A stretch of 28,643 nt of DNA, taken from an uncultured Alphaproteobacteria bacterium (GTDB lineage Bacteria > Pseudomonadota > Alphaproteobacteria > Geminicoccales > Geminicoccaceae). This document shows positions 11,480-28,643 of this stretch, one piece after another. The stretch covers positions 1 to 28,643 of the forward strand of contig CAVWPO010000023.1 in NCBI GenBank assembly GCA_963756905.1, read 5' to 3'. The position numbers and the translations under genes were made by a program. Under the pieces are notes generated by a model that saw only the letters and a list, made by a program, of their open reading frames with translations, was not told the DNA's origin and did no database searches. The stretch's first letter is position 1; each line of letters starts with the position of its first letter.

Positions 11480-11634
11480 GACAGGAGGGACACCGATGTC
11501 GGATGACAGGCGCGACACCGACAGGAGCCACACCCACACCGGACGACCCGATGCCGGATGACCGGAGCGATGCCGATGTCGGACCACGAGAGCGACACCG
11601 ACATCGGACGACAGGAGCCACACCGACATCGGAC
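11480..11634. repeat. degenerate tandem repeat array, ~25-nt unit (consensus about GACAGGAGCGACACCGAYRTCGGAC)
   Basis: Four clean 25-nt units lie at 11480-11504, 11560-11584, 11585-11609 and 11610-11634. Rearranged or partial units lie at 11505-11559. The core CCGATGTCGG occurs at 11493 and 11573. Its reverse complement CCGACATCGG occurs at 11598 and 11623. Confidence 0.6.
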
Positions 11635-11706
11635 TCAAAGGGCCGCAATCGTCCGCCAAGCAGCGCCGGGTTAATCTTTGGTCAACCTTTCCCCGCCAGA
11701 CTTCGA

Positions 11707-11799
11707 GCTCCGTGGTCCATGCGACCGTAGGAATCCGCGCCCGGCCATTTTCCGCACGCGACAGACTCCCACGGTCGCATGGACCATCGGGCACGGAGC
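11707..11799. repeat. long interrupted inverted repeat / hairpin (8+14 bp stem, 42-nt loop)
   Basis: GCTCCGTG-GTCCATGCGACCGT (11707-11728) pairs with ACGGTCGCATGGAC (11771-11784) and CACGGAGC (11792-11799). A 7-nt bulge, CATCGGG, lies on the right arm. I verified the pairing base by base. Confidence 0.6.
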
Positions 11800-12031
11800 G
11801 TAGAATTTGTTGGTTAACCAGAAGTTAATCATCCGTTCCCGGCCTCCCTTTTTGGCGGTTTTGAGGTCAGTTCGTCGCCGGCGGTTGTCACAATGCCCGG
11901 TCGGGGGCTGCAGCACCGCGCGACTTCACCCACCTGAAGGTCGTATCCGCTCTGCCTTTGGCATCGGGCTTGAAGACCCCTTCGGGGGCCATCACGCGGT
12001 GGCGGTCAGAAGCCGCCGTGTGGTGTGCTTG

Positions 12032-12059
12032 GCAAGGCCCCGCTCCGGCGGGGCCTTGC
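12032..12059 (-). terminator. GC-rich stem-loop immediately downstream of the substrate-binding-protein gene (terminator/attenuator-like, no U-tract)
   Basis: A perfect 12-bp stem, GCAAGGCCCCGC/GCGGGGCCTTGC, with the 4-nt loop TCCG. It lies 8 nt past the minus-strand stop at 12068. No T/U run follows on either strand, so its function as an intrinsic terminator is uncertain. Confidence 0.4.
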
Positions 12060-12067
12060 TCTCCTGC

Positions 12068-13238
12068 TCATTCCGTCCCGGTCAGCTTGCGCTTGCCGCT
12101 GGCGTAGTCGCTGTCCTCCCAGACCACCCACTTGCCGTCCTGGACGACGTATTTGGTGATCAGGGCGACCGTGTTCTGGCCGTGGCCGTCGAAGGTGATC
12201 GGGCCGATGATCGAATCGTGGTCCTTGACGTTGGCGAGCGCCTTGGTGACCGCCTCGCGGTCGGGGCCGACCGCCTCGATCGTGTCCAGGAGCAGGTTCA
12301 TGCCGGCAAAGGCGAACGGCCCGTAGGCCTCGGCCGGCTCGCTGTAGCCCGCCTTGGCGTACTGCTCGGTGAAGAACTTGCCGCCCGGCAGCTTCTCGAC
12401 CGGGGCGCCCTCGCGGAAGGCGACCACGCCCTCGGCGAGCGGGCCCAGGCCCTGGATGAAGGCGTCCGAGACGATCCCCGACGTCCCCTGGAACTCGGCC
12501 TTGAGCCCGAGCTTGTCCATCTGCTGGCGGATCCGGATGCCGATCGGGACCAGCCCGCCGAAATAGATCACGTCGGGGTTCAGGGCCTTGGCCTGGGTCA
12601 GCTCGGCCGTGAAGTCCTGCTGATCCGCGGTCACCCCGAAGGTGCCGAGGACGCCGCCGCCCGCGGCCTTCAGAAACTTGCTGAAGTACTTGTTGTGACC
12701 GTTCCCGTAGTCGGTGGTGTCGTGGATGATCACCCAGTTCTGATAGCCGAGGCCGGTCATGAACTGGGCCGCGACCTCGTTCTGGTTGATCATCGTGCCG
12801 TTGACCCGGTGGATCTCCGGGTAGTCGTTGCCGTAGGTGATGTCGGGCAGCACGGCACCCCAGACCACGACCGGCAGACCGAACTTGTGGTAGATGTCGA
12901 CCGTCGCCATCGCCACCACCGAGCAGTAGTGGGTGACCGCGGCGATCACCTGGTCATCGGCCGCGAGCTTGGTCGCGACCTGGACGCCGATGTCCGGTTT
13001 GCACTCGTCGTCGAGGGCTGATCATCTCGTACTGATACTTGGCCTTGGGGTCCTGGTTGCGCAGCCTGACCGCGAGATCGGCCGAGTTGCGCCCGCCGAG
13101 GCCGACCGCCGAGGTCCCGCCGGTGAGCGGCGCGATGAAGCCGACCTTGACCACGTCCTTGGCCAAGGCGGCGGGGCCGGCGAGCGCCAGCGCCAGGCCG
13201 AGCGCGGCGAGCGGCGCGATGCGAAGGCTACGGTTCAC
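12068..13238 (-). pseudogene. branched-chain amino acid ABC transporter substrate-binding protein (LivK/LivJ-like), interrupted by a frameshift
   Basis: The N-terminal ORF 12954..13238 has a GTG start after GGAGGA, the signal peptide MNRSLRIAPLAALGLALALAGPAALA, and then KDVVKVGFIAPLTGG. The rest of the protein is ORF 12068..12949. The downstream frame, read upstream of its first Met, gives LDDECKPDIGVQVATKLAADDQVIAAVTHYCS. This joins directly onto ...KYQYEMIS if one base of the CCC run (plus strand GGG 13015-13017) is removed. Confidence 0.8.
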
Positions 13239-13326
13239 GACGGTTCCTCCCTGTCCAGCTCAGCGGCCCGCTAGACATACCGCCCCGCGCCGAGCTTGCA
13301 AACACCGCCTCGGGAGATCGCCCGCC

Positions 13327-13389: not shown

Positions 13390-13641
13390 ATGAAGACGAC
13401 GATCGAGATCAACGATGCCCTGCTGCAGCAGGCCAAGCAGGTTGCCCTCGATCGCAAGCTCAGCCTGAAGGCGGTCGTCGAAGCGGCCCTCCGGCAGTTC
13501 CTGGACCAGCCCCAGGCATTCCAGCAACCCGCCTTCAAGCTCCGCAAATGCACCTTCAAAGGTCAGGGGCTGCAGCCTGGCCTCGATTGGCACGACTGGG
13601 AGACGATTCGCGCCCTGATCTACGAAGGTCGGGGCGGGTGA
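13390..13641 (+). CDS. vapB: type II antitoxin, VapB family (DUF2191-like)
   Basis: 83-aa ORF. The N-terminus MKTTIEINDALLQQAK is typical of VapB/DUF2191 antitoxins. Its stop overlaps the start of the PIN gene (GTGA at 13638-13641). Confidence 0.85.
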   Translation: MKTTIEINDALLQQAKQVALDRKLSLKAVVEAALRQFLDQPQAFQQPAFKLRKCTFKGQGLQPGLDWHDWETIRALIYEGRGG

Positions 13642-14075
13642 TCGCGTTCGATACCAACATTCTCCTGCACGCCCATTGGGAAGATTCACCCTGGCACGAG
13701 CGGGCGTACGGATGTGTCACTTCACAGGCAGAATCCGGGCTGGCCTGGGCGATCCCCTGGCCATGTCTGCATGAGTTCCTCGCGGTCTCGACCCATCCGC
13801 GAATTCACGAGCCGCCGACTCCGTTGCATCGTGCTCTGGAACAGGTGAGCTCGTGGCTGGAGGCGCCGACCCTGCGCCTGCTCGGCCCCGGCACGGGGTA
13901 TTGGGCGGTCCTCCGCGGTCTTCTCGAGTCGAGCGAGACGACTGGCGGCAGAGTCCACGACGCGCACGTTGCCGCGCTCTGCCTGCATCACGGGGTCAGC
14001 GAGCTCTGGAGCGCGGATCGCGACTTCCGCCGCTTCAAGGCTCTGAAAGTCACCAACCCGCTGGTCGACGCCTGA
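13638..14075 (+). CDS. vapC: type II toxin, VapC family PIN-domain ribonuclease
   Basis: This is the C-terminal 145 codons of track ORF 13296..14075, from GTG 13638. VIAFDTNILLHA (first PIN Asp), VHDAHVAALC and ELWSADRDF match PIN acidic motifs. Confidence 0.85.
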   Translation: MIAFDTNILLHAHWEDSPWHERAYGCVTSQAESGLAWAIPWPCLHEFLAVSTHPRIHEPPTPLHRALEQVSSWLEAPTLRLLGPGTGYWAVLRGLLESSETTGGRVHDAHVAALCLHHGVSELWSADRDFRRFKALKVTNPLVDA

Positions 14076-14081
14076 GCTCGC

Positions 14082-15801: not shown

Positions 15802-17319
15802 ATGCGTGCGATCCTGCTGTTGTTCGACAGTCTGAACCGGCGAGCGCTCGAGTGCTATGGCGGGACCACGGTCCGGACCCCGAATTTTTCCCGGCTGGCC
15901 GAGCGCGCCGTGCGCTTCGATCGCCACACGGTCGGCAGCATGCCCTGCATGCCGGCGCGCCGCGACCTGCACACCGGCCGGCTCAACTTTTTGCACCGGA
16001 GCTGGGGCCCGCTCGAGCCGTTCGACAACTCATTCCCGGCGCTGCTCGCCAAGGCCGGCATCTATTCCCACCTGGTCTCCGACCACTATCACTACTTCGC
16101 CGACGGTGGCTGGACCTACCACCAGCGCTACAACAGCTTTGCGTTCATCCGCGGCCAGGAGGCCGACAAGTGGCAGGCGATGGTCCGCCCGCCGCTCGAG
16201 CGCTTTGCCGAGATCTACCACCCCGAGCAGTTCGAGGCTAATCGCGCTGGCTTTCGCCTGCAGCAAATGATCAATCGCGAGAAGATCCGCGAGGAGGCGG
16301 ACTTCCCGGTCGTCCAGTGCTTCGCCAGGAGCTTCGAGTTCCTCGATGCCAACCGGGGCGAGGACAATTGGCTGCTGCAGCTCGAGACCTTCGACCCGCA
16401 CGAGCCGTTCCATGCGCCGGCCCGCTTCCGCAAGGACTACCCGACCAACTATGGCGGCCCGATCCTCGACTGGCCGCGCTATCGCCGGGTGCTCGACCGG
16501 CCGGACGAGATCGCCGAGCTACGCGCCAACTACGCCGCCCTGGTCGCCATGTGCGATCATTATCTGGGCCGCCTGCTCGACTACATGGACGCGCACGACC
16601 TCTGGCGCGACACGGCGCTGATCCTGACCACCGACCACGGCTTCCTGCTCGCCGAGCACGACTGGTGGGGCAAGAACCGGATGCCGTTCTACGACGAGAT
16701 CGCCCACATCCCGCTCATGATCTGGCACCCGGACCATGCGTCCGAGGCCGGCGCGCGCCGCGAGGCGCTGACCCAGACCATCGACCTGATGCCGACCATC
16801 CTGGAGCTGTTCGGCCAGCCGGTGCCGCCCGAGGTGCGCGGTCGTTCCCTGATGCCGTTGCTCGCCGGCGAGACCCGGGTCCGCGAGAGCGCGATCTACG
16901 GCATCTTCGGCGGCGCCACCAACGTCACCGACGGCCGTTTCACCTACTTTCGCTATCCCAGGGACCTGTTCGCGCAGGAGTTGTACGAGTACACGCTGAT
17001 GCCGGTGCACATGCGGGGCTTTTTCGAGCTGAAGGAGTTCGAGGGGGCAAAGCTCGTCGACCCCTTCGACTTCACCAAGGGCCTGCCGATGCTGCGGCTG
17101 CCGGCGAGGAGCGACGCGAGGCGGCCGCCAACCCAGGGCGGCGGCCTCGAGGACGCGGTGACCGTGCTCTACGACACCGAGGCCGATCCCGGCCAGATGA
17201 GCCCGGTCCGGGCGCCCGAGGTCGAGGAGCGGCTGGTTCGCGCCATGCTCGGCCACATGCAGGCGCACGCGGCGCCGGCGGAGGCCTACCTCCGGCTCGA
17301 TCTCGTGCCGCCCGGCTAG
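15802..17319 (+). CDS. sulfatase-like hydrolase (Cys-type, CxPxR motif)
   Basis: 505-aa ORF. LLLFDSLN carries the metal-binding Asp. SMPCMPARRDLHTGR contains the C-x-P-x-R formylglycine motif, and TTDHG is present downstream. Confidence 0.85.
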   Translation: MRAILLLFDSLNRRALECYGGTTVRTPNFSRLAERAVRFDRHTVGSMPCMPARRDLHTGRLNFLHRSWGPLEPFDNSFPALLAKAGIYSHLVSDHYHYFADGGWTYHQRYNSFAFIRGQEADKWQAMVRPPLERFAEIYHPEQFEANRAGFRLQQMINREKIREEADFPVVQCFARSFEFLDANRGEDNWLLQLETFDPHEPFHAPARFRKDYPTNYGGPILDWPRYRRVLDRPDEIAELRANYAALVAMCDHYLGRLLDYMDAHDLWRDTALILTTDHGFLLAEHDWWGKNRMPFYDEIAHIPLMIWHPDHASEAGARREALTQTIDLMPTILELFGQPVPPEVRGRSLMPLLAGETRVRESAIYGIFGGATNVTDGRFTYFRYPRDLFAQELYEYTLMPVHMRGFFELKEFEGAKLVDPFDFTKGLPMLRLPARSDARRPPTQGGGLEDAVTVLYDTEADPGQMSPVRAPEVEERLVRAMLGHMQAHAAPAEAYLRLDLVPPG

Positions 17320-17328
17320 GGTCTGCCG

Positions 17329-18270
17329 GTGCGCGCGCTCAAAGCCGCCTTCGGCAGCCAGCCGCCGATCGTCCGGGCGGCGCTGCTGATGACCCTCGGC
17401 GCGATCTCGGTCGCGATCCAGAACAGCATGATCCGGGTGGTCTCGGCCGAGGTCCACTCCTTCGAGGTCGTGTTCTGGCGCAACGTCTTCGGCCTGCTCG
17501 CGATGCTGCCGTTCATGCGTGGGGCGGGCGGTGGCATCCGGCTCGACATGTTCCGGGCGCGCCGGCCGAGCCGCATCCTGATGATGAGCGTCTTCCACGT
17601 CGGCGGCATGATCTGCTACTTCGCGGCGATCGCCTGGCTGCCGCTCGCCGAGGTGATCGCACTCGCCTTCTCCAAGCCTCTGTTCGCGACCGTGGGCGCC
17701 GCGCTGGTGCTCCACGAGGTGGTGCGCGCCAGGCGCTGGAGTGCGATCGGGATCGGCTTCGTCGGCGTGCTGATCGTGCTCCGGCCGGGTGCTGAGGCGA
17801 TCTCGCCGTTTGCCCTCTTGGTGCTGCTCGGCGCCCTGCTCGCGGCCGCCACCACGCTCATGATCAAATACCTGACCCGCACCGAGCGGGTGCCGACCAT
17901 CGTCTGGTACCAGGCGCTGTTCGCGACCCTGCTCTCGTTCCCCTTGTGCCTCTTGCACTGGCGGCTGCCGGATCTCGCCGGCTGGCTGCTCCTGATCGGG
18001 ATCGGCAGCTTCGGCACGCTCGCCTGGCTGACGCTCGCCCAGGCGGTCCAGCTCGCGGACGCCTCGGCGGTGGTGCCGTTCGAGTTCCTGCGCCTGCCGT
18101 TCGCGGCGCTCGCCGCCTACCTCTGGTTCGGCGAGGTGCCGAGCCTCTGGACCTGGCTCGGCGGCGGGCTGATCTTCGGGGCGACCATCTACATCACCGA
18201 GCGCGAGGCGCGCCTTGCCCGGCAGCGGGCGGCGGCCGCGACGACTGCGGGCCCGGTCACCTCGCCTTAG
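17329..18270 (+). CDS. DMT superfamily (EamA-like) transporter
   Basis: 313-aa ORF with a GTG start 10 nt after the sulfatase stop. About 10 hydrophobic segments in two similar halves, as in EamA-domain proteins. Confidence 0.8.
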   Translation: MRALKAAFGSQPPIVRAALLMTLGAISVAIQNSMIRVVSAEVHSFEVVFWRNVFGLLAMLPFMRGAGGGIRLDMFRARRPSRILMMSVFHVGGMICYFAAIAWLPLAEVIALAFSKPLFATVGAALVLHEVVRARRWSAIGIGFVGVLIVLRPGAEAISPFALLVLLGALLAAATTLMIKYLTRTERVPTIVWYQALFATLLSFPLCLLHWRLPDLAGWLLLIGIGSFGTLAWLTLAQAVQLADASAVVPFEFLRLPFAALAAYLWFGEVPSLWTWLGGGLIFGATIYITEREARLARQRAAAATTAGPVTSP

Positions 18271-22847: not shown

Positions 22848-23036
22848 GAATCGCGCTGGCCTGCATCGTGGCGGCGCACCGGCCGTGGTTGCGCATGACG
22901 CACGGTCGACCGCCGTTCGGGCAGCTCGCGGATCGCCGCAGCCGGCGATGTCCGGTGTCCTGGACGACGCAGCCGGGAACGGCCGCGGACCGGCGGGCGT
23001 TGCCGCCATGACGGGACCGGGAACGGGAGCAGAGAC

Positions 23037-23324
23037 ATGGCGACCTACGAGCCTCGGCCGATCGACACCTCGAGGGTCGAGCTGGACGAGGAGCTGCAGC
23101 AGCTGACCGAGCGGCTGGCCGAGAACGCCCACGACCACTGGGCCAGGCGGCGCATGGCGGAGGGCTGGACCTTCGGCCGGGTGCGCGACGACGGCGCGCG
23201 CAGGCACCCCAACCTGGTGCCCTACGACCAGCTGACCGAGGCGGAGAAGGAGTACGACCGCGAGACCGCGATGCAGACGCTGCGCGCGATGATCGCGCTC
23301 GGCTGGCGGATCGAGCCCGCCTGA
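23037..23324 (+). CDS. RyR (ryanodine-receptor repeat) domain-containing protein, stand-alone
   Basis: 95-aa ORF with an SD GGGAG upstream. LAENAHDHWARRRMAEGWTFG...RRHPNLVPYDQLTEAEKEYDRETA matches the bacterial RyR-domain pattern (E..H..W...R...GW.YG......HP.LVPY..L.E.EK..DR). Confidence 0.85.
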   Translation: MATYEPRPIDTSRVELDEELQQLTERLAENAHDHWARRRMAEGWTFGRVRDDGARRHPNLVPYDQLTEAEKEYDRETAMQTLRAMIALGWRIEPA

Positions 23325-23382
23325 GCCCGTGAGCGGCCGCCCGACCGCCGACCGGGGCGCCGGGCGGCGGGCAGCCGCGGGC

Positions 23383-24576
23383 TCAGGGGTGGTTCGCGCG
23401 CATCGATGCCGGCTGCCCCGGCAGCTGGAGCTTCTTGCCGGTATCGGTCACCTGGCCGCCGTCGACCTTGAGGATCGAGACGTTGCTGTCGAGGAAGTTG
23501 CCGACGTAGAGATGGCTGCCGTCCTGGCTGAACACGACGCCCTCGGGCAGGCGGCCGACGTCGACCTCGCCGGTCTTGGTGACCTTCTTGCCGTCGATCG
23601 CCAGCACCGCGACCTTGCCGGCCGGATGGGCGAACCAGGCGTCCTTGGCCACCCCGCCGCTGCCGTTCAGGAGCACGGCGGCCGCAATCTTGCCGGTCGG
23701 GCTGATCGCGAAGCCCTCGGGCGCGTCGCCGACCACCACCTTGTCGATGGCGCGCGGCGGGTCGGCCTCGAGGTCGATCACGGTCACCGTGTCGACGTGG
23801 CCGTCGGAGGTGCCGGCGTTGCCGTTGTCGGCGGTCAGCGCGAGCTTGCCATCCGGGGTGATCGCGAGATTGTACGGCCAGAGACCGACCGGGATGTCGT
23901 AGCCGCCGTAGGTGACCTTCTGGCCATCGATCGCCAGCACCGCGATCTTGTGGTCGGCGAACTTGGCGGCGAGCGCCCGCTTGCCGTCGGGCGTGATCGC
24001 GACCGCCGAGACCTGGGACTTCGCGTCCGCGGCGGCGACCTTTACGGTATCGACCAGCTTGACCTCTTTGCCATCGATCGCGAGCACGCCGATCGAGTTG
24101 TCGGCGCGGTTGGCGACCAGGGCGAGGTTGCCGGCGGCGTTGATCGCCAGCCCCGAGGGTTGCTTGCCGACCTCGACCGTGGCGATCGGCATCGGCGGGT
24201 CGGCCTGGAGGTCGATCACGTAGAGCTTGTTGTCCGGCACCGGCTTCCAGGCGCCGTCCTGCTTGGTCCAGGCCATCGCGTTGGTCGCGATCGCGAGCAT
24301 CCCGTCGGGGGTGATCGCGAGGTTGGTCGGCGGCCCGAAGACCGAGTTCATGAGCGCCAGATTGGCGATGATCTTGGGCTTCTCCGGGTCGGTGCCGATG
24401 TCGACGATCGAGATCGAATCGCCGCCCGGCGCCGCGGTCACGACCTTGCCGGCAGCATCCCAGCTGACCTTCTGATCGTTGCCCACGATCATCAGCTCGG
24501 CGCTCGCGATCGCCGGCAGCGCAGCCCAGGCCGCCACGGCCGCGCAGATAGGAAGGCACCGCCTGCTCATCGTCAT
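23383..24576 (-). CDS. secreted beta-propeller repeat protein (YncE/YVTN/lactonase-like)
   Basis: This is the C-terminal ~397 codons of track ORF 23383..25563, starting at ATG 24576 or 24570 after GGAG. The signal peptide is MTMSRRCLPICAAVAAWAALPAIASA. Blade motifs recur: LAITPDG, LAINAAGN, VAITPDGK, LAITPDGK, FAISPTGK, VVFSQDGS. Confidence 0.8.
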   Translation of the reverse strand: MTMSRRCLPICAAVAAWAALPAIASAELMIVGNDQKVSWDAAGKVVTAAPGGDSISIVDIGTDPEKPKIIANLALMNSVFGPPTNLAITPDGMLAIATNAMAWTKQDGAWKPVPDNKLYVIDLQADPPMPIATVEVGKQPSGLAINAAGNLALVANRADNSIGVLAIDGKEVKLVDTVKVAAADAKSQVSAVAITPDGKRALAAKFADHKIAVLAIDGQKVTYGGYDIPVGLWPYNLAITPDGKLALTADNGNAGTSDGHVDTVTVIDLEADPPRAIDKVVVGDAPEGFAISPTGKIAAAVLLNGSGGVAKDAWFAHPAGKVAVLAIDGKKVTKTGEVDVGRLPEGVVFSQDGSHLYVGNFLDSNVSILKVDGGQVTDTGKKLQLPGQPASMRANHP

Positions 24577-24894
24577 CGTCTCCATGTCTCTGTTGGCCGC
24601 GTCCGGTTGTCTCCGGCCGGCATCGGCGCGCGACTTCTCCGACCAGCCCCGGGCTCGCCGCGCGCGCTCTGATTGCCGACTATGACCGCCGGCGAGAGGC
24701 TCGACAACTCCCTTTGGGAAGGACGCTCGGGACGGCGACAACCGAAGAGCGTTTTCAATTCCTAAAGCTTTTCTATTCATGGGTGTGAAGGGGCTCACTG
24801 ACACCGGCCACGTTCCGTCCGATCCTCCAAGCATAGTCAATCGGGCGCCAGGCGTTGCCCGTGCATGGCGCCTCACCCTGGAGGGATCAAAACC

Positions 24895-25842
24895 ATGCAG
24901 ATCGGATTGTCCGACGCACCAGCGCCCTATCAGGCAAAGCCCAACGGCGCGCATCCAGTTGACGTCATTCCCGCCCTCAAGGAGGAGAAGAGCCGGCGCG
25001 CCAGGGAGCGCAACCTCATTCGCGTCTTTTTGAGCCACAAGAAGAAAGATTTCAAAGCCGCTAACCAGATCCGCGAAGTGCTGCGTATTCAATCTGCCGG
25101 TCACATCGAAGTCTTCATGTCCGAAAACATCACCAAAGGTGATGATTGGCAGGGGAAGATCGAGCAGGCCTTGTATGAGTCCGACTGGTTCATTCTGCTG
25201 TATTCCGGCGTCGACGACGACTGGGCGTGGTGCCACCACGAGGCCGGGATTTTCCGGGGTATGGTGTACCCCGATGCCGACCGCCTGGTCGTCCTCTACC
25301 CGCCCAACGTCGAGCTGCCCGACCCGCTCAAGAAATACCAGGCGGTCAAATGTCAACCGCCCCAGCCCGATCAGCCCGACGAGCTCGATCTGTTCTTCAA
25401 GGAGATTTTCGGCAAGCCGCCCTATCCGGGCCTGCCGCCGATCAACTCGGTATTCGCCAACGAAGCCTGTGCCACCCGGCAGGACGCCGCCGAGAAGATC
25501 GTCCAGGCCGTGGGCTTTCTGGTCGTCAACTCGATCGTACCCGAGAACGTCATGTATCTGCACGTGCCCGACGTCAATCTGCTCAAGTCGGCAGCGGTCC
25601 CGGATGGCATCAGCATCTGGCGCGGCTCGAGTGCCATGCGCCTGTTCGAGCTCGGCGACACCGGCTTTTCATGGCAACAGTTTCAGGCGCGAACTCGATG
25701 CCGATCTTCGCCAAAACCTCGATGCGACATTCTGGCCTGCGATTTACAAGGCGTGCGCCAAATCATTGACCAGCTGTCGAGTGGCGGCGACCTACACGGT
25801 CTTCCGGTCGCCGGCGCGACGGACACCACTATCTGCCGGTGA
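24895..25842 (+). CDS. TIR domain-containing protein (N-terminal TIR, uncharacterised remainder; C-terminal ~50 codons of this frame doubtful)
   Basis: ATG 24895 lies 10 nt after GGAGG; ATG 24865 is an alternative start. IRVFLSHKKKDFKAANQIREVL...GHIEVFMSENITKGDDWQGKIEQALYESDWFILLYSGVDDDWAWCHHEAG fits the TIR_2 pattern, including the WC..E putative catalytic Glu. GC is locally much lower than in the flanks. Confidence 0.8.
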   Translation: MQIGLSDAPAPYQAKPNGAHPVDVIPALKEEKSRRARERNLIRVFLSHKKKDFKAANQIREVLRIQSAGHIEVFMSENITKGDDWQGKIEQALYESDWFILLYSGVDDDWAWCHHEAGIFRGMVYPDADRLVVLYPPNVELPDPLKKYQAVKCQPPQPDQPDELDLFFKEIFGKPPYPGLPPINSVFANEACATRQDAAEKIVQAVGFLVVNSIVPENVMYLHVPDVNLLKSAAVPDGISIWRGSSAMRLFELGDTGFSWQQFQARTRCRSSPKPRCDILACDLQGVRQIIDQLSSGGDLHGLPVAGATDTTICR

Positions 25843-26399
25843 TCAATCGCGTCGACATCACTGGCGACAACAGTGCGACTTTCTCGATCAGCTTCGTGCA
25901 AACCGCCGCCGGCACCCAGAGCAACGTCCGCGAGAAGAGCGTCGCCAGGATCTTCACGGCGCTCAACCTCTCGCACCGCTTTCGCTGGGAGATCATCGAC
26001 CCCTACAAGGACGCCGATCGCCTCCGGGACTTCGTCGAGCACCGGGCGCGGGCGCTCGAGGGCGACGGGCGCAGCGGCGCCGGCAATGGCGGCACCGGCC
26101 TCGCGACCGTCTGGGAAGCGATCAAGCTCCTCGAGATCGAGTCGCGCAACCGCGGGGTCAACGATCAGGATGCGTTGCCGGCCGACTTCGGCCCGGGTGC
26201 GCAAGCGCGGGTGAGCGCGATGTTCGACCACTGGCAGACGATGCGCCAGCGCCTGCAGGATGCGGCCCAGGCCGGCGACGTCCCGGCCTTCGCGGCCGTC
26301 CTCAAGGAGCTCAATTCGGTCAATGTCGAGTTCATTTCCCTGGCCGCCAAGCGCCTGGGCGAACTGGTCCAGGCCGACGCAACTCAGCGCGAGAAGTGA
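25839..26399 (+). CDS. hypothetical protein, either the partner of the TIR gene or its displaced C-terminal domain
   Basis: 186-aa ORF with a GTG start overlapping the TIR ORF stop (GTGA). The sequence is protein-like, with a helical-looking C-terminus (VSAMFDHWQTMRQRLQDAAQAGDVPAFAAVLKELNSVNVEFISLAAKRLGELV). No recognisable motif and no SD of its own. Confidence 0.55.
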   Translation: MINRVDITGDNSATFSISFVQTAAGTQSNVREKSVARIFTALNLSHRFRWEIIDPYKDADRLRDFVEHRARALEGDGRSGAGNGGTGLATVWEAIKLLEIESRNRGVNDQDALPADFGPGAQARVSAMFDHWQTMRQRLQDAAQAGDVPAFAAVLKELNSVNVEFISLAAKRLGELVQADATQREK

Positions 26400-26423
26400 G
26401 CGGCGGTTGCGGCGATCGCGGAG

Positions 26424-27146
26424 CTATCCGGCCCGCTCGGCGCGGCGCGCCGCCGCCATCGCGGCGAGCGTCGGGAAGCGGAAGTCGGGGTGAACCTCGG
26501 TGTCCGGCCGGTGGGTGGCGCCATGGCCCGCCTGGCCCGCCCGCCGGTGGATCCAGCAGGTGGCGAGGCCGATGCGCTTGGCCGGCACGTGGTCGTGGTA
26601 GAGCGATTCCGCGGTGTGCAGGATCTGCTCGCGGGCGATGCCCTGCTCGGCGAGCCTGGCCAGCAGGTACTCGAAATTGCGCGGGTCGGGCTTGTAGGAG
26701 CCGATGTCCTGGGCGGTGTAGACGGCATCGAACGCGACCCCGAGCTTGCGTTGGCTGTGGGCGAATGAGGCCCGGTCGACGTTCGAGAGGATCACGAGGC
26801 GATAGTCCCGCTTGAGATCGGCGAGCGCCCCGGCGCTGTCCGGAAAGGCGGGCCAGTCCTCGATCGAGGCGCCGAACGCCTGCGCCGCTCCGGGGTCGGG
26901 GGCGACGCCGAAGTGCGCCGCGATCGCGCCATGGACCCGGCTCAGGAGCTCGGGATAGAGCAGCCCCGGGGTCGCCGCCTGCTGCGGCGCTTCGGCTTGC
27001 GCGAAGGCCGCCAGGATCTGCTCGCGGCTCGCTCCGACGCCCGCCCGCTCGAGCCAGGGCTGAAGCGCCTGCACGATGCCGCTCTCCCAGTCGATCAGCG
27101 TGCCGTAGCAATCGAAGGTCAGGACCGAATAGTCGGAAAGCCGCAT
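26424..27146 (-). CDS. HAD-superfamily hydrolase, haloacid dehalogenase type II-like
   Basis: Track ORF 26424..27335 trimmed to ATG 27146, preceded by GGGGAGGGGA. Motif I is LTFDCYGTLIDWE. Also present are VILSNVD and YKPDPRNFEY, typical of this family. Confidence 0.85.
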   Translation of the reverse strand: MRLSDYSVLTFDCYGTLIDWESGIVQALQPWLERAGVGASREQILAAFAQAEAPQQAATPGLLYPELLSRVHGAIAAHFGVAPDPGAAQAFGASIEDWPAFPDSAGALADLKRDYRLVILSNVDRASFAHSQRKLGVAFDAVYTAQDIGSYKPDPRNFEYLLARLAEQGIAREQILHTAESLYHDHVPAKRIGLATCWIHRRAGQAGHGATHRPDTEVHPDFRFPTLAAMAAARRAERAG

Positions 27147-27422: not shown

Positions 27423-28643
27423 ATGTCACGGGTCCTGGAGCGAGGCTTGGCAGGCGAGGCGATCATGCTCACGACGGCTTATCGTCCGGAGATCAGCCGG
27501 ATCACCGACTGGCTGGTCGAGCAGGGCCTGCTCCGGCTCAGCTTCGAGAGCCTGGTCGAGGGCTTCTGCGAGCGCCTCGTGGCGCTGGACGTGCCGATCT
27601 GGCGCGGCTACGTCAGCGCCCAGACCCTGCACCCCCGCTTTCGCGGCATGGGCGCCTCCTGGCACCCCGACCGGGGCATCAGCACCGACGTCTACATCCA
27701 CAGGCTGACCCCGGCGGAGGGCTATCTCTCGAGCCCGTTCAAGCGCATGGTCGACCTCGGCGTCAACGATCTGCGGGTGCGCCTGGACGGCAACGAGCCG
27801 ATCGAGTTCCCGCTGCTCGAGGAATTCCGCCAGGACGGCGCCACCGACTATCTCGCCCAGCGCACCTGGTTCGGGGTCAACGGCAGCCTCGACGACAAGA
27901 CCGGCCTGATCTCGTCCTGGACCACCAGGCGGCCGGGCGGCTTCACCGAGGGCGACCTCGCGGCGCTCAAGCACCTGATGCCGCGCCTGGCGCTGGCGCT
28001 GCAGGCGCGGCTTGGCTACGACATCGCGGTCAACCTGCTCGACACCTACGTCGGCCCCGAGGCGGGCCGGCGGATCCTGAACGGCGAGATCCGGCGCGGC
28101 ATGCTCGAGGTGATCGGGGCGGTGATCTTCTACGCCGACCTGCGCGGCTTCACGGCCAGCACCGATCGCCTCGCGCGCGACCGCGTGGTCGACATGCTGA
28201 ACGCCTACTTCGACTGCCTGGTGCCGAACATCGACGCCTTCGGCGGCCAGGTGCTGAAGTTCCTGGGCGACGGGCTGCTCGCGACCTTCCCGCTCGACGG
28301 CCGCCCGGCCGCCGAGGTCTGCGAGCTGGCGCTCGATGCCGCGGCCAAGACGCTGGGCGAGGTGCGGGCGCTGAGCGCCGAGCGCGCGCGGGCGCAGCAG
28401 CCGATCATGGACCTCGACCTGGTCCTGCACCTGGGCGATGTCTACTACGGCAACGTCGGCAGCACCGACCGGCTCGACTTCACCGTGATCGGCCCGGCGG
28501 TCAACGAGGCGGCGCGGATCGAGGCGCTGTGCGGCCAGCACGACCGCAACCTCTTGATCTCCGAAGCCTTCGCGCGCGCCGCCAGCCAGTCCGCCGACCG
28601 CCTGGTCTCGATCGGCCGCTTCGCGCTCCGCGGCGTGCGCACC
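27423..28643 (+). CDS. class III adenylate/guanylate cyclase domain protein, 3' end outside window
   Basis: Not in the ORF track because it is open to the window end (407 codons, in frame to 28643). ATG 27423 lies 6 nt after GGGAGG. My own translation gives AVIFYADLRGFTAST, KFLGDGLLATFP, LHLGDVYYGNVGS and DFTVIGPAVNEAARIE, the class III cyclase catalytic motifs. These follow a ~210-aa N-terminal region that I do not recognise. Confidence 0.85.
   Translation, partial: MSRVLERGLAGEAIMLTTAYRPEISRITDWLVEQGLLRLSFESLVEGFCERLVALDVPIWRGYVSAQTLHPRFRGMGASWHPDRGISTDVYIHRLTPAEGYLSSPFKRMVDLGVNDLRVRLDGNEPIEFPLLEEFRQDGATDYLAQRTWFGVNGSLDDKTGLISSWTTRRPGGFTEGDLAALKHLMPRLALALQARLGYDIAVNLLDTYVGPEAGRRILNGEIRRGMLEVIGAVIFYADLRGFTASTDRLARDRVVDMLNAYFDCLVPNIDAFGGQVLKFLGDGLLATFPLDGRPAAEVCELALDAAAKTLGEVRALSAERARAQQPIMDLDLVLHLGDVYYGNVGSTDRLDFTVIGPAVNEAARIEALCGQHDRNLLISEAFARAASQSADRLVSIGRFALRGVRT

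Follow-up and report, generated by a model that had tools for sequence, protein, structure and literature searches.

The window analysed here (28,643 nucleotides of contig CAVWPO010000023.1, assembly GCA_963756905.1, from an uncultured alphaproteobacterium of the Geminicoccaceae) contains at positions 24895–26399 a gene encoding one cytoplasmic protein of approximately 500 residues, in which a TIR_2 domain is followed by a middle alpha/beta domain and a C-terminal helical bundle. The protein belongs to a family that is sparse, spans many phyla and is always encoded by a stand-alone gene, and its middle and C-terminal parts belong to no curated family. It was judged an evenly balanced proposition that the C-terminal module gates the TIR domain within a self-contained NADase, an old acquisition at a fixed locus, with the frameshifts seen in the window likely being errors. 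The gene and its parts were delimited as follows (aa, amino acids).

24895 to 26399, plus strand: gene for the TIR domain plus C-terminal module, ~500 aa; in three frames as assembled, open when the frame is corrected, with intact homologues of 500 aa
25024 to 25356, plus strand: TIR_2 domain, aa 54–164 (Pfam PF13676, E = 1e-11, 45.8 bits against a gathering score of 28)
25240 to 25242, plus strand: GAG codon of the putative catalytic glutamate E116, in the motif W-x-W-C-H-H-E-A-G, from conservation in alignments
25420 to 25916, plus strand: middle alpha/beta domain, aa ~176–340, predicted by AlphaFold2 (AF2), with conserved F251, W260, W279/W280, P314 and a Y-x-P...beta-hairpin
25917 to 26396, plus strand: C-terminal helical bundle, aa ~341–500, with AF2 helices at 347–498 and HRFRWE, ExExxNRG, LPxDFG, W446 and N476

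As assembled, two plus-strand open reading frames (ORFs) lie between the flanking genes, at 24865/24895–25842 and 25839–26399, and the first-pass annotation had taken the second for a possible uncharacterised partner. In a three-frame translation, the protein-like sequence leaves frame 1 for frame 2 near 25690 and continues in frame 3 from near 25815. When the stitched protein was used in a homologue search, 51 relatives were recovered, nearly all of them single proteins of 465–552 aa; the closest (P0001) is a single ORF of 500 aa and is 95% identical. Deleting both inserted bases restored a 500-aa open frame from the ATG at 24895, which is preceded by the Shine-Dalgarno sequence GGAGGG. Since intact homologues of both ORFs are single proteins of ~500 aa, 25839–26399 was rejected as a separate partner gene; it is the C-terminal third of one gene, and the notion of a partner was dropped.

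The two frame changes were compared with two close relatives, a syntenic contig (L001, 92% nucleotide identity to the window) and a contig from a sibling sample (L009, 99.1% identity over 5.6 kb). Three single-nucleotide insertions were identified.

25693, plus strand: 1-nt insertion in the window, GACTC to GAACTC, shifting frame 1 to 2; inside a GANTC site; not in L001 or L009
25816 to 25817, plus strand: 1-nt insertion in the window, GGCGGAC to GGCGCGAC, shifting frame 2 to 3; not in a GANTC site; not in L001 or L009
L009, same gene: its own 1-nt insertion, GATTC to GAATTC, inside a GANTC site

Both window insertions were therefore missing from L009, which had a different one, and two of the three indels (25693 and that of L009) fell inside GANTC, which occurs here about once per kb and is the CcrM methylation motif of Alphaproteobacteria. 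Close relatives of the TIR gene derive from metagenome-assembled genomes (MAGs) of Microflora Danica (MFD), a project that applied deep long-read Nanopore sequencing to 154 samples of soil and sediment (PMC12313526). Other genes were also broken. The window gene for a LivK-like periplasmic binding protein (Peripla_BP_6; 12068–13259, minus strand) is split into two frames near 13020, at an AGCCCTC run, the frames joining between ...KYQYEMIS and LDDECKPDIG...; because this is a housekeeping gene, its frameshift adds to the case for assembly error in the window. A split MmgE/PrpD gene was found in L009. Given that L009 is intact at both sites, that indels fell in GANTC, that the MAG relatives are nanopore-only and that a housekeeping gene is frameshifted too, it is likely that the window frameshifts are consensus errors at methylated or low-complexity sites, most likely from nanopore sequencing, and the real gene is therefore probably intact.

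Alternatively, the window copy could be a true pseudogene of recent origin, its insertions being real mutations and its locus non-functional in this strain; this was considered unlikely. It would suit the presence of two uncompensated frameshifts 123 nt apart, the sole uncompensated coding indels in ~11 kb aligned to L001, and other family members in European Nucleotide Archive (ENA) assemblies are likewise called broken (P0039, P0041, P0045 and P0051). The 25816 insertion lies outside any known error-prone motif, and because it lacks an obvious error context, a very recent pseudogene retains some small probability. Set against this are the 99.1%-identical L009, which has neither insertion; the placement of the 25693 insertion and that of L009 both in GANTC, which is very non-random at such a site density; the further broken genes in both assemblies; and the lack of any excess of non-synonymous change. 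The out-of-frame segment differed from L001 by 12 synonymous and 0 non-synonymous changes, while the whole corrected gene showed 65 and 23, respectively; relative to L009 the gene showed nine synonymous and five non-synonymous differences. As judged from these comparisons, the TIR gene showed the signature of purifying selection.

A substitution in the same gene was seen at 25528–25532, where the window has GTC AAC TCG (V-N-S) and L001 has GTC GAT TCG, which includes a GANTC site (GATTC); the family consensus is D/E, and the asparagine may not be a true N but a basecalling error of the substitution type, arising at a methylated site. The apparent 'two-gene module' conforms to a pattern of assembly artefact, i.e., indels at GANTC methylation sites in nanopore-only MAGs, and the same pattern will create similar false operons elsewhere.

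A TIR_2-like N-terminal domain with a conserved glutamate had been proposed from the sequence, and both elements were confirmed by the Pfam match, which exceeds the gathering score, and by the conservation of E116. The motifs VFLSH, DWFILLYS and WAWCHHEAG were all found in the domain. E116, W110, W112, C113 and G118 were invariant among 37 close homologues (alignment A2), and E116 was at least 90% conserved among 92 distant members (alignment A4). The conserved glutamate of the alphaC region that defines NADase-type TIR domains (W-C-x-x-E) is represented by E116, which is the putative catalytic residue by analogy with published TIR NADases.

Matches to more specific families were slight. DUF4062 (PF13271) was detected below threshold (15.7 bits against a cut-off of 24.7, E = 0.018). 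No SAVED or STING sensor, as found in the TIR-SAVED and TIR-STING proteins of CBASS or type III CRISPR, was matched in Pfam or PADLOC, except for SAVED_TIR at noise level over the TIR domain (E = 0.057), or by Foldseek, and the protein had no cNMP_binding domain and no PycTIR match. PADLOC matches were weak, the best being of ThsB type (E = 4e-5, 21 bits), and NCBIfam returned the Thoeris type III protein ThcB4 (E = 3e-4, 19.8 bits against a cut-off of 220). These matches are what might be advanced for a Thoeris-type, ThsB-like TIR that produces a signal for an effector encoded elsewhere in the genome. The scores are, however, far under the family cut-offs and reflect generic TIR similarity; the protein is two to three times longer than a typical ThsB and has its own conserved C-terminal module; and no effector gene is conserved adjacent to it in any locus, with neither ThsA nor another Thoeris effector gene found in the window or in L001–L009. 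A Thoeris-type role is accordingly most improbable.

Beyond the TIR domain no motif had been recognisable by eye, and this was borne out by database searches: the ~325-residue module occurs in none of the curated libraries searched (Pfam, NCBIfam and PADLOC), nor was there a sequence match among PDB sequences, profile searches included. The AF2 model of P0001 (predicted local distance difference test score, pLDDT, 78.7; predicted TM-score, pTM, 0.43) comprised an N-terminal helix, the TIR alpha/beta fold (aa 42–175), a linker helix, the middle alpha/beta domain (~219–336) and the helical bundle (347–498). Conserved positions outside the TIR domain included F251, W260, W279, P314, the HRFRWE motif, F431, W446 and N476. 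The C-terminal 325 residues modelled alone had a pLDDT of 77.3. Structure prediction and Foldseek had been suggested as a check on the corrected protein, and they gave no significant fold match for the C-terminal module; searches of PDB and BFVD returned only weak matches to PAS, LOV, PpsR and histidine kinase-like structures (E ≥ 0.02). The middle domain is possibly PAS-like.

Natural variants of ~320–350 aa (L043–L064) contain the TIR and middle domains without the helical bundle, for example in Pseudaquabacterium pictum W35 (L057, 9998–10972). These share the W-x-W-C-x-x-E-A-G motif of the TIR subfamily and end in a hairpin, Y-R-P-I-L-Y...V-T-I-V-L-D-P. Since the short variants keep the middle domain only, the C-terminal region consists of two separable modules.

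For the full-length model, the top Foldseek matches in PDB were TIR-APAZ chains of SPARTA, the best being 8isy_B (E = 1.4e-3, probability 0.96, ~400 aligned columns). This would be consistent with an orphan TIR-APAZ, that is, a SPARTA partner that has lost its pAgo or become separated from it. The matches were marginal (TM 0.19–0.22, root-mean-square deviation ~26 Å) and vanished when the C-terminal module was used alone, its best match (E = 0.02) being to unrelated PAS/LOV proteins; furthermore, there was no sequence match to the TIR-APAZ chains in PDB, and no Piwi/pAgo gene in any annotated locus. Identity with TIR-APAZ was rejected on the structural comparison, and the orphan scenario retains only a vanishingly small probability.

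When 1.84 billion representative proteins were searched with a profile built from the C-terminal module, and matches were counted as clusters at 50% identity, at least 354 clusters were recovered at E ≤ 1e-3, and 140 at E ≤ 1e-10. Most of the proteins were 430–540 aa long and ended in the module; of the 92 members sampled, 86 had an N-terminal TIR_2 domain (E ≤ 1e-3). A survey of GTDB species genomes with a 12-sequence alignment (A5) placed full-length members in the Alpha-, Beta- and Gammaproteobacteria, Arenicellales, Desulfuromonadales and Deferrisomatales, as well as in Phycisphaerales and other Planctomycetota, Bryobacteraceae and Acidimicrobiia. Cultured carriers were Motiliproteus sp. 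SC1-56 (long form) and P. pictum W35 (short form). The suggestion that this was a self-contained TIR protein of undescribed architecture held, and TIR domain and module are conserved together as a stand-alone gene across phyla.

In the window, the TIR gene stands between a divergent beta-propeller gene and a convergent gene for a HAD hydrolase, a position between two host-like genes having been noted previously, and is followed 1 kb downstream by a cyclase gene that the first-pass annotation overlooked.

23383 to 24570, minus strand: gene for a lactonase-like, 7-bladed beta-propeller (Pfam Lactonase, 1.8e-15), syntenic in L001–L006
24571 to 24894, no strand: divergent intergenic region between the beta-propeller and TIR genes, GC content 63%, with the Shine-Dalgarno sequence GGAGGG at 24880–24885
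26424 to 27146, minus strand: gene for a HAD-family hydrolase (Pfam Hydrolase/HAD_2), syntenic in the clade
27423 to 28643, plus strand: gene for a class III adenylate/guanylate-type cyclase (Pfam Guanylate_cyc in orthologues), continuing past the window end

The intergenic region at 24571–24894 had no Rfam match and no sigma-70-like consensus promoter, and a scan of the low-GC region for RNA elements and signals identified no Rfam family, consensus promoter or convincing terminator. GC content was 62.9% for 24577–26423 against 70.5% on both flanks, and 62.6% for 24895–26399 against 70% for the window; the lowest-GC stretch of 1.85 kb in the window coincided with the TIR gene region (62.3–63% against a mean of 70%, ~2.5 standard deviations below it). 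GC content at third codon positions (GC3) was 0.82 for the TIR gene, and 0.77 for its TIR part, against 0.91–0.96 for the adjoining genes. Earlier counts made by hand were all reproduced (25021–25140, 47.5%; 25861–25920, 61.7%; 26281–26340, 58.3%; 23401–23460, 70.0%).

The clade to which the window belongs consists of uncultured Alphaproteobacteria, including a Geminicoccaceae MAG, and was represented by six GTDB species representatives (L010–L015) and metagenome contigs. Gene order (lactonase, TIR, a small ORF in some cases, HAD, class III cyclase) is kept in this clade from 95% to 58% protein identity, with a looser arrangement in L007 and L015. The reduced GC and GC3 of the TIR gene persist in the orthologues L001–L003 and L008, but not in L007. 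The description of this region as a compositionally foreign islet was thus right with respect to its low GC, but is not supported if taken to mean recent insertion, because relatives down to 58% identity have the same locus with the same low GC and the window locus has no hallmarks of mobile elements. The atypical codon composition instead suggests an ancient acquisition, with the TIR gene having entered this lineage long ago and since become fixed at a single place in the chromosome. When metagenomes were scanned with the cyclase for an empty site, short contigs only were returned; L077 showed the alternative order of L007 and L015, while L080 was uninformative.

Such stable synteny might belong to a non-immune, vertically inherited TIR enzyme of NAD or nucleotide metabolism or of second-messenger production, possibly acting with the HAD phosphatase and cyclase. 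The retention of lactonase, TIR, HAD and cyclase across the clade would agree with this, as would purifying selection on the TIR gene, the lack of defence or mobile genes nearby and the failure to find the gene on plasmids or phages. However, vertical descent alone predicts synteny among relatives; at 59 distant loci, where homologues of lactonase, HAD and cyclase were all sought within 10 kb on each side, not one of the three was found; distant members have mixed surroundings, which include genes of conflict type; and atypical GC3 in L001–L003 and L008 (L007 excepted) suggests an acquired accessory gene. A non-immune role of this kind is improbable, and the beta-propeller gene is a syntenic neighbour rather than a conserved partner.

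The cyclase raised a further alternative, a Pycsar-like two-component system in which a cyclic nucleotide from the cyclase would activate the TIR domain by binding to the PAS/GAF-like middle domain. Its orthologue matches the PADLOC PycC models at 2.7e-25, the TIR and cyclase genes are 1–3 kb apart in each of the six clade species, and the middle domain has weak structural matches of PAS/phytochrome type. Yet the PycC match does not extend beyond the Guanylate_cyc catalytic domain, which is generic, and a second cyclase of this kind lies within 10 kb in L001. Since the convergent HAD gene intervenes, the TIR and cyclase genes do not appear to form one operon. With no cNMP-binding domain or PycTIR match in the TIR protein, CAP12-PCTIR_TIR matched by one of 92 members, and no cyclase near any distant locus, this arrangement is very unlikely. 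The cyclase orthologue also carries an uncharacterised N-terminal region of ~225 aa.

Several other features of the window and its relatives were recorded. Directly upstream of the beta-propeller gene (window 22848–23362) is a 95-aa ORF with a RyR domain (23037–23324; Pfam RyR, 1.8e-37); the same place in the 92%-identical L001 (6250–8454) is occupied by a 659-aa GGDEF-EAL gene, a small replacement polymorphism. A second lower-GC patch (~65%) holds a VapB antitoxin gene (13390–13641; Pfam VapB_antitoxin, 1e-6) and a VapC PIN toxin gene (13638–14076; PIN, 4e-9), both on the plus strand with a GTGA overlap, as well as six GANTC sites in 350 bp (13605–13951). In the 82%-identical L002, insertion sequence (IS) elements (DDE_3/HTH_Tnp and DDE_Tnp_1) occur at 12314–13260 and 16367–17707, between the HAD remnant and the cyclase, and the HAD gene is seemingly split into two short ORFs.

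None of the known partners (ThsA, CD-NTase, SAVED, STING, pAgo or NLR) was found within ~7–10 kb of the TIR gene, which extends an earlier remark that no usual partner adjoins it. L009 has a large gene (1005 aa; 11512–12704) of the NACHT/AAA_16, NLR-like STAND NTPase type, ~6 kb past the position of the window 3' end and not adjacent to the TIR gene. All-against-all clustering of neighbouring ORFs from 28 loci identified no conserved partner outside the window clade (22 distant loci). Neighbours at distant loci included housekeeping genes, such as those for monomeric isocitrate dehydrogenase, aldehyde dehydrogenase, an ABC transporter and GGDEF-EAL. Within 5 kb either side of the 22 distant full-length loci there were also genes of conflict type: TPR-S, Trypsin_2+TPR-S+MAP3K_TRAF_bd, subtilase and patatin, together with mad2/3/8, AriA, SduA, IetS and other TIRs. 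As regards the proposed check for defence islands, the clade has a housekeeping context, of a kind named beforehand as counting against a defence role, and only some distant relatives adjoin defence-like genes. The distant pattern fits an autonomous single-gene unit that is occasionally placed in defence islands.

Among TIR NADases (SARM1, plant TIRs, AbTir, ThsB and TIR-APAZ) catalysis needs self-association of the TIR domains, which is gated by non-TIR domains, and a working model of sensing and licensing follows from this. The C-terminal module would be a sensor or assembly switch that keeps the TIR domain inactive; a cue, most plausibly one connected with phage infection, would allow TIR domains to self-associate into a composite active site; and the assembled TIR would cleave and deplete NAD+, causing growth arrest or abortive infection. 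As conserved effector genes are lacking in the vicinity, the output is more likely to be NAD+ depletion than a signal passed to another protein. Phage defence is a plausible candidate role. A broader proposal is that the family is a new self-contained innate-immunity protein, found in Proteobacteria, Planctomycetota, Acidobacteriota, Actinomycetota and others and fixed as a chromosomal gene in one alphaproteobacterial clade, whose PAS-like and helical-bundle sensor reads an infection cue and licenses the TIR NADase; this is offered tentatively, at rather less than even chances. In a rarer variant of it, the module would sense a cyclic nucleotide from the neighbouring class III cyclase.

Several observations weigh against a gated, self-contained NADase as described. 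The AF2 model is moderately confident only, and its catalytic segment (113–120) has a pLDDT below 50. The window copy is frameshifted as assembled; every uncompensated coding indel in the ~11 kb alignment with L001 falls in the TIR gene, and the insertion at 25816 is in neither a GANTC site nor a homopolymer. The clade locus is fixed amid metabolic and transport genes, which is atypical for defence genes; clade loci contain no mobile-element genes except for the IS in L002, and tblastn found no family match on plasmids or phages. Lastly, the defence-type neighbours (146 ORFs, 22 loci) are isolated hidden Markov model (HMM) matches that have no background rate and form no complete systems.

The latest systematic survey of bacterial TIR immunity left out stand-alone TIR proteins (10.64898/2025.12.03.692087). 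Since they were set aside, the repertoire of stand-alone TIR sensors is largely unmapped, and their exclusion may explain why the present family was uncatalogued. A TIR domain fused to an unknown domain would not surprise a specialist; yet this module is conserved and widespread, and no match to its fold was obtained. If it is a sensor, it would be a new trigger-recognition domain for NAD-based immunity. The family is tractable because cultured carriers exist. Its architecture would be that of a TIR enzyme with a private regulatory module, while the term 'defence module', as first applied to this locus, is not established.

The family can be compared with five known systems. Like ThsB of Thoeris, it has a bacterial TIR_2-type domain with a catalytic glutamate, and ThsB-type proteins are its weak best matches in PADLOC and NCBIfam; it differs in having no adjacent ThsA or other effector, a much longer protein, its own C-terminal module and scores below cut-off. 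SPARTA TIR-APAZ resembles it in overall length and in the order of an N-terminal TIR followed by a non-catalytic domain of ~300 aa, but the C-terminal module does not match APAZ and a pAgo gene is not nearby. With Pycsar it shares the combination of TIR and sensor domain (C- or N-terminal) in one protein and, in the clade, a nearby class III cyclase matching PycC HMMs; unlike PycTIR, there is no cNMP-binding domain, the TIR is not of CAP12/PCTIR type, the genes appear not to form an operon and the cyclase is absent near distant members. DSR2-type NADases (PMC10973363) likewise combine an NAD-consuming head and a large, proprietary C-terminal sensor region in one polypeptide, although their catalytic fold is SIR2 rather than TIR and the sensor parts have no sequence or structural relationship.

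A further likeness is to Evangelion (Eva01) and Swarozyc, which are likewise encoded by one gene without a partner and begin with a TIR-type alpha/beta core bearing a catalytic glutamate (10.64898/2026.06.25.731849; 10.64898/2026.05.01.722283). Evangelion is a single-gene TIR-like NADase with an auxiliary region required for defence (10.64898/2026.06.25.731849). In both, a divergent auxiliary C-terminal region is needed for function, and the output proposed here would likewise be NAD+ depletion and abortive infection. The differences are that the core here is Pfam TIR_2 (45.8 bits) and not DUF4062 (15.7 bits against 24.7); that the module is ~325 aa, conserved across phyla and unrelated; and that the family occurs on chromosomes of environmental bacteria, not plasmids, with a function that is predicted only. 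Evangelion and Swarozyc offer recent experimental precedent for such single-gene logic in a different Pfam family.

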